The position numbers and the translations under genes were made by a program. Shown one piece after another: positions 14,106 to 26,080 of a stretch of 26,780 bases of DNA. This stretch comes from a virus (Duplodnaviria; Heunggongvirae; Uroviricota; Caudoviricetes). The stretch lies in the IMG/VR virus record IMGVR_UViG_2713897161_000007; one strand, written 5' to 3'. The notes under the pieces are model-generated. The model was not told where the DNA came from and did no database searches. It saw nothing but the letters and a program-made list of their open reading frames with translations. Numbering within the stretch: the stretch's first letter is position 1; each line of letters starts with the position of its first letter.

Positions 14106-14744
14106 ATGAATCTGGTGATGTCAGATATTACCCGCAACAAGCTGGGGTGCTATATGGCGCAGCAGGCGTCGCTTAACAATATCCCGGTATCTGCACTGGT
14201 ATCGCGATTTACCGTGGAACCCGCGGTGCAGCAGCGTTTTGAAAACGCCTCAAAGGAAAGTACCGAATTTACGAAAAGAATTAACGTGATCGGCGTGACC
14301 GACCAGAAAGGCGAAAAAATCCTCCTGGACACCACCGGGCCAATTGCGCGCACGAATAGCAGTTATGACGGCATCAAACGCCGTAAAACGGTTTATGACG
14401 TGGCATCAGGGGACTCGTTATTTATTTCTGAACTCGGTCCATTACCGGAAAATGTTACCTGGTTGTCGCCGTATGGAGAGTATCAGAAGTGGAACGGCAC
14501 ATCCTGGGTGAAAGATGCAGAAGCAGAAAAACTGTTTCGGATAAGGGAGGCGGAAGAAACAAAAAACAGCCTGATGCAGGTAGCCAGCGAGCATATTGCG
14601 CCACTTCAGGATGCCGTAGATTTGGATATTGCAACGGAGGAAGAGGCATCGTTACTGGCTGCATGGAAGACATACCGGGTATTGTTGAATCGTGTTAATA
14701 CAGCGGTAGCAGCGGATGTTGAGTGGCCAGTCGCCCCACAATAA
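14106..14744 (+). CDS. Chimeric ORF: N-terminal ~90 aa of major capsid protein (gpN-like) fused in frame to the C-terminal ~120 aa of a tail fibre assembly protein (Tfa/gpG-like)
   Basis: Residues ~30-90 ([10 protein letters not shown]...[17 protein letters not shown]) match the P2 gpN N-terminus as remembered. Residues 94-212 ([23 protein letters not shown]...[11 protein letters not shown]...EWPVAP) match lambda/P2 Tfa C-termini. Junction near 14370-14385. Confidence 0.7.
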
Positions 14745-22749: not shown

Positions 22750-23889
22750 GTGGGAAACAATAAAGTGAAATTAGGAAGAAATGATAAGTGCTGGTGTAAT
22801 TCAGGACTTAAGTATAAAAAGTGCCATCTTGGTCGAGATCGTGAAACTCCGGTATCCAAAGCCGAGGCACTGAAATTTTCAAAGTCTCTCTCGCAGAGAA
22901 AGGCATGTTATGCGCCAGCATCCATGCACGAAGATTGTGATAAACGCATCGTTCAGGCGCATACGATATCTAAGAGCAGTAGCCTTAAGGCGATCGCCGA
23001 CTCCAGCAATCACGTCATGGGGGTGATAATGAACTTAGCAAGCCTGATGAGAAACAACGGAAAATGGCTTCCCGAGAAGATCGGTATCAATCAGGCATCC
23101 ACTTTTACAGGATTTTGTGCAGTTCATGACAGAATCTTATTTTCATGCCTAGAGAACGAAAAATTTACAGGCACGGACGAGCAGTGCTTTGCCTTAATGT
23201 TTCGTTCATTGTCTAAAGAAATTTATGCCAAAGAAGGGGGAGTGCTATCTTCTGATTTTGCTAAAAATGCCGATAAAGGAAAGCTACAAGTTGAACAGTA
23301 TTATATTCAGAAATTAATCGACCAGCACCAAAGTGGCTTAAATGCAGCAATAATTGAATTAAATAATCTTAAAACTAGCCTCGACCGCATCCTACTTAGC
23401 AGGCAATTTTCAGAAATTGAAAGTGTTATCTTCACTTTTGCAGAGCCTTTACCAATTGTAGTTTCGTCAATTCTTTCACCGGAGAGGGATTTCGATGGGA
23501 CCAAAATTCAGGATTTGAGCGATCTTACAGTGTCGGCGGAACAAGTATGTTTCAATGCTTTTTCCTGCGGAGGTAAGGGATATGTAGTGTTCAGTTGGCT
23601 GAGAACTTCAACAATTATCAGACGTTTTATACGGACACTAATTAAGATCCCAGCTAACAGGATGTTCAATACCCTTCTGTATTTTTTCTTCACAAAGGCC
23701 GAAAATACATATTCATCCCCTGAGTGGTGGGACAGGCTCAGTGATAAACAGCGAGAGAATATCGGCAACATGATTATGTCAGGGGTTGAATTTTTTGGCA
23801 TACCTACATCACAGGTTGATCATTCCGTTGATTATAACGCCGCTGCACTTGAAGAGATAACATGCAGCAACAACGAAATTTGCAGCTGA
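22750..23889 (+). CDS. SEC-C-motif protein of unknown function (N-terminal zinc-binding motif plus ~350-aa uncharacterised domain); cargo between D and ogr
   Basis: 379-aa ORF with GTG start. N-terminal LGRNDKCWCNSGLKYKKCH matches the SEC-C metal-binding motif. AT-rich, preceded by ~400 bp AT-rich non-coding DNA. Confidence 0.7.
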   Translation: MGNNKVKLGRNDKCWCNSGLKYKKCHLGRDRETPVSKAEALKFSKSLSQRKACYAPASMHEDCDKRIVQAHTISKSSSLKAIADSSNHVMGVIMNLASLMRNNGKWLPEKIGINQASTFTGFCAVHDRILFSCLENEKFTGTDEQCFALMFRSLSKEIYAKEGGVLSSDFAKNADKGKLQVEQYYIQKLIDQHQSGLNAAIIELNNLKTSLDRILLSRQFSEIESVIFTFAEPLPIVVSSILSPERDFDGTKIQDLSDLTVSAEQVCFNAFSCGGKGYVVFSWLRTSTIIRRFIRTLIKIPANRMFNTLLYFFFTKAENTYSSPEWWDRLSDKQRENIGNMIMSGVEFFGIPTSQVDHSVDYNAAALEEITCSNNEICS

Positions 23890-24178: not shown

Positions 24179-24439
24179 ATGTTCCGTTGTCCGCTTTGTG
24201 GCGCATCTGCCCGAATCCGCACCAGTCGTCCGGAAAACGATTCAAACACTGTGCGGCAAAAGTATTACCAGTGTAACAACCTGGAATGCGGCGTATGCTT
24301 CTCAACACTGGAAGCTTTCCATAAATTCACATCAAAACACGCCTCCGGCGTTCACTCTTCGGAAGGTATCCCGTGGCATGAGCTGCCAGCTTCACACAGG
24401 GGAAACAATCAGATGAGTTTGCCTTTACCTCAGAATTAA
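24179..24439 (+). CDS. ogr: Ogr/Delta-family zinc-finger late-gene activator
   Basis: MFRCPLCGASARIRTSR...YYQCNNLECGVCFST matches the P2 Ogr zinc-finger pattern. GGGAGG RBS 6 nt upstream. Confidence 0.85.
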   Translation: MFRCPLCGASARIRTSRPENDSNTVRQKYYQCNNLECGVCFSTLEAFHKFTSKHASGVHSSEGIPWHELPASHRGNNQMSLPLPQN

Positions 24440-24629
24440 CAGGCAGAATTGCCGGAGTAACAAAAAAACGATAGATTACCCGCGGGTGCCTTTCGGCTGA
24501 TGGTCGGAGGAATACCCGAAGGCCGGATGTGGAAAGACCCCGGAAAACATTTCTGTTTAACCGAGGCCCTAACATATCTACCTTAAGCAAGTGATAGGTT
24601 AGCGCCTCTCCAACAAAGGAGCAAGCGCT

Positions 24630-24770
24630 ATGTCGCAAAAATCGCTTACAGCCATCACGTTCTGCGTGACGGTAATCCTCATCATCTGGATGCTACACGG
24701 TTCGCTGTGTGAAATACGGATGAGCTTCTGGGGAGCGGAGTTTGCGGCGTTCTTACAGTGTAAGCAGTAA
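24630..24770 (+). CDS. hok: Hok/Gef-family small membrane toxin (type I toxin-antitoxin toxin)
   Basis: 46-aa ORF MSQKSLTAITFCVTVILIIWMLHGSLCEIRMSFWGAEFAAFLQCKQ. Hydrophobic N-half plus SLCEIR and E[FV]AAF motifs of Hok. AAGGAG RBS. Not in the ORF track (short). Confidence 0.75.
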   Translation: MSQKSLTAITFCVTVILIIWMLHGSLCEIRMSFWGAEFAAFLQCKQ

Positions 24771-24856
24771 GGAAACCGCGACGGGGGAGCAATCCCCCGT
24801 CAATCGGTTGCTAAGGTTGGCTGAAGTGGCACCCTATCTCACAGACATGAACAACA

Positions 24857-24890
24857 AACCCGCAGCGTAAGAACTGCGGGTTTTCTTTTT
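24857..24890 (+). terminator. Rho-independent terminator downstream of hok
   Basis: Stem AACCCGCAG/CTGCGGGTT with loop, then TTTTCTTTTT. Confidence 0.7.
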
Positions 24891-24958: not shown

Positions 24959-25240
24959 TTACTCAGCATTCTCCTGCTTCCATTGCCGGATCATTTCATC
25001 GGTAACATCACCCTCATAACATACCACGTCATACCCTCCATTACGGCTATATGCACTGCGTCCACCACATCTACTACCATTCCTTGCATGATTATAAGGA
25101 CACGCACAATTGCCTGGATAAGATTCAATGGATTCTTTAATTATTTCTTTTTTGATCTGAGCATCAGACTTTCCTGTTGCTGCATATCCACTAAAAGATA
25201 CTAAACAAAGGCAGATTGCCATTAATAAACCACATCGCAT
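24959..25240 (-). CDS. Small secreted Cys-rich protein of unknown function
   Basis: Longest ORF is 24959-25354, but a signal-peptide-like segment (MRCGLLMAICLCLVSFSGYAA) begins at the internal ATG at 25240. No convincing SD at any start. Confidence 0.45.
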   Translation of the reverse strand: MRCGLLMAICLCLVSFSGYAATGKSDAQIKKEIIKESIESYPGNCACPYNHARNGSRCGGRSAYSRNGGYDVVCYEGDVTDEMIRQWKQENAE

Positions 25241-25710
25241 ACCGATACACTCTATTACTAACCAATCATAGCCCACATCATAAAATCGAGATGAGGAGTA
25301 CAATACCTTTAACAAGAAGGTGTCATAACGATAATATGTCGTGCAATTCATCAAAAAAAAGATCTATATCAAAGAGATAGAACTCTTATCAGCGCTTCAG
25401 ACATCGGCATTCGAGGCAGCAGAAAAACAGTAAATCTGACGAATTTGCCTTTTCCCAAGATGTTGTCAGATTAAAAAGATAGATTAGCGCAGGTACCTGT
25501 TGGTGGATTGCAGGAGGAAAAATGAAGTCGAGTGAAAAAATCCCAGAAAAATTTTTGTTTAACAGAGGTCCTGGTTCACTATGCGAAATACGGAGGAGCT
25601 GCAGAAGAATTCTGCTTCATCCTTAGAGTTTAAACAGCACGTGCACTACCATTGTTTCTGCATATCGCCACACCATCGCCACTCTACCGCCATTGCACAA
25701 AATACAAATA

Positions 25711-25778: not shown

Positions 25779-25865
25779 TGGTACCCGGAGCGGGACTTGA
25801 ACCCGCACAGCGCGAACGCCGAGGGATTTTAAATCCCTTGTGTCTACCGATTCCACCATCCGGGC
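25779..25865 (-). tRNA. leuZ: tRNA-Leu (anticodon UAA)
   Basis: 87-nt minus-strand sequence GCCCGGATGG...ends CCGGGTACCA; anticodon loop TTTAAAA gives UAA. Matches E. coli leuZ as remembered. Confidence 0.95.
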
Positions 25866-25877
25866 TCGGGAAGAAAG

Positions 25878-25951
25878 TGGAGGCGCGTTCCGGAGTCGAA
25901 CCGGACTAGACGGATTTGCAATCCGCTACATAACCGCTTTGTTAACGCGCC
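25878..25951 (-). tRNA. cysT: tRNA-Cys (anticodon GCA)
   Basis: 74-nt minus-strand sequence GGCGCGTTAACAAAGCGG...CGCCTCCA; anticodon GCA. Confidence 0.95.
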
Positions 25952-26004
25952 AAATTCTTCAGGCCTTTCAGCCAGACATCCGCTGACGCCGATGTCTTTT
26001 AAAC

Positions 26005-26080
<76 letters not shown>

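Follow-up and report, generated by a model that had tools for sequence, protein, structure and literature searches.

In the textbook account of the hok/mok/sok (parB) system of plasmid R1, the antisense RNA Sok represses hok indirectly, by blocking mok, the translation of which is obligatory for that of hok, and deep mutagenesis of the R1 locus has re-confirmed this account (PMC9841398). Mutations of the R1 mok start codon abolish toxicity, as do premature mok stops upstream of the hok AUG (PMC9841398); by the R1 paradigm, a locus without mok should therefore be silent. Both the reviews and the deep mutagenesis study treat mok as obligatory (PMC9841398, PMC4147584), and the most recent census of Hok peptides did not analyse Mok, the prediction of which "is not trivial" (bioRxiv 10.1101/2025.08.07.668861). 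Among prophage-borne systems, hokW-sokW of the Stx2 prophage Sp5 has been shown to function as a type I toxin-antitoxin module, which plays a part in lysis and in the release of phage (Takada et al. 2021, PMC8621323). In two systems with unrelated peptides and RNAs, tisB/istR-1 of E. coli and aapA/IsoA of H. pylori, translation of the toxin starts, once the mRNA has been processed, in a structured initiation region of its own and without a leader peptide; the antisense RNA binds a standby site or the 5' UTR, well upstream of the site where ribosomes bind to make the toxin, and triggers RNase III cleavage (PMC4147584, PMC9841398).

Here we describe a hok locus found in a viral DNA record of the Caudoviricetes (IMGVR_UViG_2713897161_000007), the whole 26,780-nt stretch of which is called the window below. 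The hok gene itself is ordinary and already annotated; what appears to be undescribed is the way in which this known system is regulated in the subfamily to which the gene belongs. A literature search returned no report of a mok-less but otherwise complete hok/sok family, and an earlier description is possible. To our knowledge, then, this conserved and common prophage-borne variant of hok/sok, which contradicts the rule that mok is required, is new to the literature. Either its members are translated and repressed in a different manner, or the toxin is silent in hundreds of genomes and yet apparently under purifying selection; if Sok control in them is indeed independent of mok, the subfamily is a natural experiment on whether mok coupling is required.

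The hok gene, its prophage setting and its spread

The hok gene ("cluster 72"; 24630-24770, + strand) starts with ATG and encodes a 46-aa Hok/Gef toxin, MSQKSLTAITFCVTVILIIWMLHGSLCEIRMSFWGAEFAAFLQCKQ. The peptide scored 30.1 bits against Pfam HOK_GEF (PF01848; gathering cutoff 22, E = 3.7e-7) over residues 7-44, and RefSeq names the same reading frame "Hok/Gef family protein". Seven residues are more than 80% conserved in the logo of the Hok survey preprint (M1, C16, T18, L30, C31, E32 and E41; bioRxiv 10.1101/2025.08.07.668861), and all seven were present in the window Hok as M1, C12, T14, L26, C27, E28 and E37. An identical peptide is listed as #1628 of cluster 72 in the supplement of Escalera-Maurer et al. 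(bioRxiv 10.1101/2025.08.07.668861). Two other peptides of this cluster, 72_1621 and 72_1589, were cloned behind a fixed Shine-Dalgarno (SD) sequence in an overexpression toxicity panel of 45 peptides, and neither is among the only three constructs that were non-toxic in that panel (bioRxiv 10.1101/2025.08.07.668861); 72_1621 differs from the window Hok by one residue.

The SD sequence of hok, AAGGAG (24616-24621, +), was read directly from the sequence 8 nt before the ATG. An intrinsic-terminator-like hairpin (stem 24856-24883, +) is followed by TCTTTTT, the feature extending to 24891; it is limited to the P2-type context and absent from the Stx-phage relatives. The first-pass annotation had proposed a Hok-family toxin gene just 3' of ogr, with a strong AAGGAG ribosome-binding site and an intrinsic terminator, and gene, site and terminator were all recovered here. 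As for the strength of the site, the SD is a good one but it does not distinguish the locus, since R1, hokB and hokC share the same AAGGAG.

The last phage gene before the hok module is ogr, the P2 late-gene activator (24179-24439, +; Pfam Ogr_Delta, 52.4 bits, and RefSeq). The hok start lies 190 nt downstream of the ogr end, and no terminator-like site was obtained when this interval was scanned for terminators. The DNA of the window is that of E. coli, the prophage lying in the neighbourhood of the leuZ-cysT-glyW tRNA genes, and the tRNA trio (Leu, Cys, Gly) is present in the window at 25779-26080. In the O26:H11 strain 11368, the RefSeq order is late-control D, a "YecA family" ORF, ogr, "Hok/Gef family protein", a hypothetical ORF, tRNA-Leu, tRNA-Cys, tRNA-Gly, pgsA and uvrC, and the hok region shares 97.8% identity with the right-hand end of phage P88 (Peduoviridae, Xuanwuvirus). 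The P2-type order of the late genes, the tRNA genes on the 3' side and the identity with P88 together indicate that hok is a moron of a P2-like prophage, carried at its ogr end in the interval from ogr to the prophage boundary.

Other features of the window were noted in passing. A 379-aa ORF with an N-terminal SEC-C motif ("YecA family protein"; 22750-23889, +) lies between the late-control D gene and ogr and is another moron. On the opposite strand, 3' of hok, a small Cys-rich ORF with a signal-peptide-like N-terminus (24959-25354, -) occurs in phage P88 too; in RefSeq a 93-aa version of it is named "hypothetical protein", and the Pfam search gave no credible match, the sole hit (Sclerostin) being below cutoff. 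IS009 (RF02111) gave a strong Rfam match at 14509-14707 (+), with 192 bits against a gathering score of 117.

A 461-nt fragment covering the hok region was 99.8% identical to the chromosomes of O26, O103 and O111 EHEC strains, and 1755 of 5426 complete E. coli genomes (about one third) matched it at 60-100% identity, which is far beyond chance. Relatives with a Hok of 46 aa, occasionally 47 aa, were found in P2-like prophages, in lambdoid/Stx prophages beside lom or gpJ, and in O157:H7 beside ykgM; the settings of the subfamily comprise P2-like and lambdoid prophages and one chromosomal site. The same 46-aa subfamily was also found in Salmonella, E. albertii and Citrobacter; the scan of species-representative genomes yielded just 12 loci. 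The subfamily is carried by P2-like and Stx-type prophages and bears on how hok modules behave in EHEC prophages. Two matches of 100% to the peptide in assemblies labelled Planococcaceae (a metagenome-assembled genome) and Vagococcus sp. were given no weight, these loci being probably contaminating enterobacterial (E. coli) contigs and not real hosts.

Search for a mok reading frame

Upstream of the hok ATG in the window, all three frames are closed: the nearest stops are a TAG at 24600-24602 (-30, in the hok frame), a TAG at 24595-24597 (-35) and a TAA at 24584-24586 (-46). Between these stops and the hok ATG the script found no ATG, GTG or TTG, and the codons read directly included no CTG, ATT, ATC or ATA. 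When the same script was run on controls, an ATG was detected at -57 in the R1-type plasmid locus and in hokC and at -58 in hokB, each reading through the hok start. That no mok frame overlaps hok here had been remarked on in the first-pass annotation; the observation holds for the window and is common to the whole subfamily. None of the 28 distinct leader variants of the subfamily has an ATG within 80 nt upstream of hok, and the frame-0 TAG at -30 is invariant among them. An ATG at -45 to -70 reading through the hok start was found in 0 of 59 unique subfamily loci, whereas, among the 49 unique prophage loci of the hokC/hokW type taken as a positive control (prophage loci recovered with a HokC query, a set which should include hokW-type loci), 47 have such a mok ATG, at -56 to -59. 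Judged from these leaders, the absence of mok is a property of the subfamily and no private decay of the window copy.

Within the leader of the 46-aa subfamily, variation is greatest in the segment expected to hold the mok start; this segment carries 1-nt indels and behaves as non-coding. The nearest K-12 homologue by peptide is hokA. An intact hokA locus was sought as a mok-containing sister, and the one ST131 genome sampled carried the same IS150 insertion as K-12.

The hokC/hokW-type controls allowed a side observation on mok itself. Their mok ATG is in frame with hok in 35 loci, in frame +2 in 8 and in frame +1 in 4; with all three frames in use, the Mok amino-acid sequence is not conserved in these loci, and "Mok" in most of them would be an N-terminally extended Hok. 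The variable mok frames of the controls fit the finding in R1 that the act of translating mok matters while the Mok product does not (PMC9841398).

RNA elements and the Sok gene

The locus was aligned element by element with R1 hok/mok/sok and with K-12 hokB and hokC, by eye and with Rfam RF01794. It shares with all three the Hok/Gef peptide, a putative promoter, the complementary 5' tac and 3' fbi elements, a ucb-like box, the GAGG hairpin with GCCUC (dcb) and the GC-rich 3' hairpin before fbi; a putative Sok promoter overlaps the hok SD region at the same spacing, and the predicted Sok, like theirs, consists of a 5' tail and a stem-loop. It differs from them in that mok is missing (no start after the GAGG, stops in all frames), in that dcb stands about 10 nt closer to the AUG, and in the length of Hok, 46 aa as against 49-52 aa. 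hokW-sokW of Sp5 is likewise a prophage-borne hok/sok module of pathogenic E. coli, but HokW has 51 aa and is HokC-like, 47 of the 49 hokC/hokW-type controls keep their mok ATG, and the Stx-phage copy of the 46-aa subfamily occupies a locus of its own beside lom. K-12 also has a Hok-family gene without mok, hokD (relF), which is a truncated remnant devoid of sok, tac and fbi as well and is co-transcribed with relBE; the window locus, in contrast, keeps tac, fbi and a putative sok.

A putative hok promoter, TTGCCG-17-TAGATT (24449-24477, +; -35 at 24449-24454, -10 at 24472-24477), was assigned by homology and conservation, with G 24484 as the predicted +1. The arrangement TTGCxx-17-TAxAxT, 6 nt before GGGTGCC, is common to four divergent relatives (Stx-phage, O157, gpJ-adjacent). 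On the opposite strand, a putative Sok promoter (24596-24624, -) has the -35 hexamer TTGCTC (24624-24619), a 17-nt spacer and the -10 hexamer TAACCT (24601-24596); the R1-type Sok promoter, TTGCGC-17-TATCCT, stands at the homologous position, and the AGGTTAG block which holds the Sok -10 is invariant in 50 relatives. A strict sigma-70 scan with a threshold of 9/12 reported no promoter on either strand; the hok promoter scores 8/12 and the Sok promoter 6/12 against the consensus, so that both calls rest on positional homology with R1.

The predicted Sok RNA (24522-24588, -), obtained by folding with its ends inferred, begins with about 10 single-stranded nt (GCUUAAGGUA), continues with a long stem-loop and ends in UCUUUCC. 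Its fold has an MFE of -22.5 kcal/mol (z = -3.1), and a fold as stable was found in 0 of 200 shuffles. This layout resembles that of R1 Sok. The antisense regulator had earlier been thought to be arranged differently or lost, and the minus strand around 24560-24660 had been named as the place to look for its promoter and transcript; the putative promoter was found at the position homologous to that of R1, and the Sok-like RNA in the canonical place. With promoter hexamers and stem-loop at positions homologous to R1, the Sok gene appears neither lost nor rearranged. The hypervariable segment of the leader coincides with the Sok 5' tail and with the loop which that tail would recognise, and this hypervariability may reflect co-resident hok/sok copies diverging to avoid cross-talk.

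In the MFE fold of 24484-24886, the predicted mRNA 5' end, which forms the tac element GGGUGCCUUUCGGCU (24484-24498, +), makes 15 bp with the complementary fbi (fold-back inhibition) element GGCUGAAGUGGCACCC (24819-24834, +), and when the 3' end was removed from the fold a 5' hairpin formed instead. Across 50 relatives, the tac/fbi pairs were kept in 93% of cells, some fbi variants pairing with the unchanged 5' end by G-C to G-U replacement, and for pairs of the RNA elements overall the figure was 93-97%. Subfamily members from different contexts resemble one another in sequence only as far as a point just 3' of fbi. The Rfam family RF01794, which is named "sok" and models the hok leader, matched 24484-24640 (+) over positions 1-157 of 157 with E = 4.2e-7; its 40 bits are below the gathering score of 59, and at that threshold the match is not listed.

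Within the leader, a ucb-like box GGAAAGACCCC (24531-24541, +) has two possible pairing partners, the tac 5' end and GAGG: the RNAalifold consensus joins columns 8-21 with 54-66, and the single-sequence MFE fold joins CCCC with GAGG. A hairpin homologous to the "mok SD / dcb" hairpin, the Sok target, was predicted by RNAalifold and Rfam at 24563-24608 (+), with GAGGCC-CUAAC pairing to GUUAG-C-GCCUC; it corresponds to columns 91-103 with 125-136 of the RNAalifold consensus, is nearly invariant and equals positions 84-125 of RF01794. The GAGG at 24563-24566 is an orphan Shine-Dalgarno sequence, invariant in the subfamily and followed by no start codon; in R1, hokB and hokC the mok ATG stands 6-9 nt after the homologous GAGG, whereas here the apical segment varies and contains 1-nt indels.

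On the 3' side, folds gave a GC-rich hairpin at 24779-24802 (+), two pairs of which show compensatory changes in 12/50 and 9/50 relatives; by analogy with R1, the active mRNA left by processing would end in this hairpin and be protected by it. Outside this hairpin, RNAalifold and explicit pair counts detected almost no two-sided pair changes in the 50 relatives. Four pairs changed on both sides, no better than in shuffled controls, the relatives being too close to one another, and for the same reason the alternative helices are not separable by covariation.

A local hairpin (24600-24630; -14.2 kcal/mol, z = -4.5) is predicted to sequester the hok SD. The accessibility of SD and AUG was compared in the processed mRNA of the window, of three subfamily relatives and of the R1-type, hokB and hokC loci, in folds that were unconstrained, had the Sok target masked or had the GAGGC:GCCUC hairpin forced. 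The hok SD was no more open than in R1 and hokB, with P(unpaired) of 0.00-0.12 here versus about 0.25 there; folding in these models thus neither supports nor explains mok independence, the SD being if anything more paired in the window. The distance from dcb to the hok AUG is -26 here as against -34 to -37 in R1, hokB and hokC, and the SD abuts dcb. With the spacer shortened by about 10 nt, GCGCCUCUCC can pair either upstream (GAGGCC...CUAAC) or downstream with the hok SD, in the -14.2 kcal/mol hairpin, and such shorter spacing would fit mok independence.

The window allele itself departs from the subfamily consensus by a 1-nt deletion (GGTCGGA-GGAAT, 24508-24510) and by a G-to-A change at 24537 in the ucb-like box GGAAAGACCCC, both shared by few relatives. 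Since mutations that weaken the tac stem of R1 lock the mRNA in an inactive fold, the window allele might be attenuated.

Selection on the locus and regulation without mok

Pairwise dN/dS of hok was 0.2-0.5 at dS of 0.5 to >1, and the ORF was complete, with 46-47 codons and no frameshift or stop, in all full-length subfamily loci recovered. The leader, which is free of ORFs, evolved 2-4 times slower than the synonymous sites of hok in the same pairs (K 0.17-0.31 versus dS 0.50-0.87). These rates argue that both the Hok peptide and its leader are under purifying selection.

We favour, with a probability of about 0.6, the reading that the locus belongs to a widespread mok-less Hok subfamily, in which the mRNA is locked by tac/fbi, trimmed at the 3' end and read for hok from its own SD, Sok repressing it without mok. 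The full-length hok mRNA would be locked by pairing of tac with fbi; trimming to the 24779-24802 hairpin would let the 5' end refold, and Hok would then be translated directly from its own AAGGAG with no coupling to a leader peptide. Sok would pair with 24522-24588, leading to RNase III cleavage and decay; it may also occupy the orphan SD/standby region or, alternatively, free GCGCCUCUCC, which would re-sequester the hok SD. In each case its action would not pass through the blocking of a mok ribosome. We infer from the sequence comparisons that hok is translated, and repressed by Sok, without mok. A more specific proposal is put forward tentatively: with mok dispensed with and Sok and fold-back kept, Sok might act by a route absent from the R1 paradigm, be it occlusion of the GAGG standby site or a GCGCCUCUCC relay that clamps the hok SD. 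Although their peptides and RNAs are unrelated, tisB/istR-1 and aapA/IsoA might on this hypothesis be mechanistic analogues. Our literature search found no reported transcript, Sok RNA or Hok protein from a native locus of the 46-aa subfamily. By analogy with R1 hok/sok and Sp5 hokW-sokW, the likely role of such a module would be to retain the prophage, to exclude other phages or to aid lysis when the prophage is induced.

Read-through from ogr could add an induction-linked component to hok expression, as described for hokW, and one may go further and suppose that hok is expressed mainly within the phage programme, by ogr read-through or by late transcription on induction, serving as a lysis helper as proposed for hokW, with Sok and fold-back mattering little. 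The ogr-hok interval without a terminator-like site would permit this, ogr of a Salmonella P2-like prophage was transcribed in all conditions tested (PMC7067206), and hokW-sokW aids the release of Sp5 after mitomycin C (PMC8621323). However, the same promoter, leader and fbi are kept in unrelated contexts with no ogr upstream, and the strong constraint on the leader points to a self-contained module. We consider it unlikely that the phage programme dominates, and this supposition is compatible with the favoured reading and not exclusive of it.

It is likewise improbable that the locus is a silent relic, in which the loss of mok made hok untranslatable and which persists, free of cost, through recent prophage spread. 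The loss of toxicity in R1 mutants of the mok start or with early mok stops (PMC9841398) speaks for such a relic, as do the -14.2 kcal/mol hairpin around the hok SD, which is mostly paired in all folds, and the deletion and G-to-A change of the window allele in the tac/ucb region. Against it stand the low dN/dS over pairs as divergent as dS 0.5 to >1, the intact reading frames and the slowly evolving leader, together with the occurrence of the subfamily in P2-like prophages, beside lom, gpJ and ykgM, and in Salmonella, E. albertii and Citrobacter. What decay looks like in this region can be seen in a second hok locus, which is degenerate (25467-25630, +), about 850 nt further 3', between the prophage end and tRNA-Leu. 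It keeps the promoter (TAGATT) and leader and then passes, through a 128-nt deletion, into the middle of the coding sequence at "GSLCEIR"; lost with the deleted stretch are the Sok promoter, the SD and start of hok, and the N-terminal half. This copy is probably the remnant of an earlier P2-like prophage at the same site, and the contrast between it and the intact main locus disfavours the possibility, raised in the first-pass annotation, of an inactivated relic of a standard locus; so do the absence of mok throughout the subfamily and the apparent purifying selection on peptide and leader.

The leader does contain open frames in some members. An ORF in frame +2 runs through the hok start in 20 of the 59 unique subfamily loci (ATG at -130 or -103, GTG at -100, TTG at -46), and this frame is closed in the other 39 and in the window, by the TAA at -46 in the window and by a stop at -58 or elsewhere in others. 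We regard these ORFs as accidental: the closing TAA at -46 is present in some and missing from others of a set of near-identical sequences; the -130 ATG lacks an SD, falls within the tac (5') stem and is not found in the O157 and Citrobacter members; and a 1-nt indel on the 3' side of this ATG puts members in different frames. In several leader variants AUA, AUC or AUU stands 7-9 nt after the invariant GAGG, but these codons are not conserved and the short ORFs which they open end before the hok SD. It is therefore very unlikely that a cryptic or relocated leader ORF, from the frame +2 ATG at -130 (24500) or from a tiny ORF with a non-canonical start after GAGG, replaces mok as the frame that Sok blocks. 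Individual leader candidates were rejected because they were not conserved, were shifted in frame by indels or had no SD, namely a 28-codon ORF at 24500-24586, a 21-codon GTG ORF at 24529-24594, the mini-ORF GTG-ATA-GGT-TAG at 24591-24602 and the AUA/AUC starts after GAGG.

Returning to the favoured mok-less subfamily, a minor point concerns its annotation: the hok ORF of P88 is labelled "MokW-like host killing", and names of this kind are misleading for genes that lack mok.
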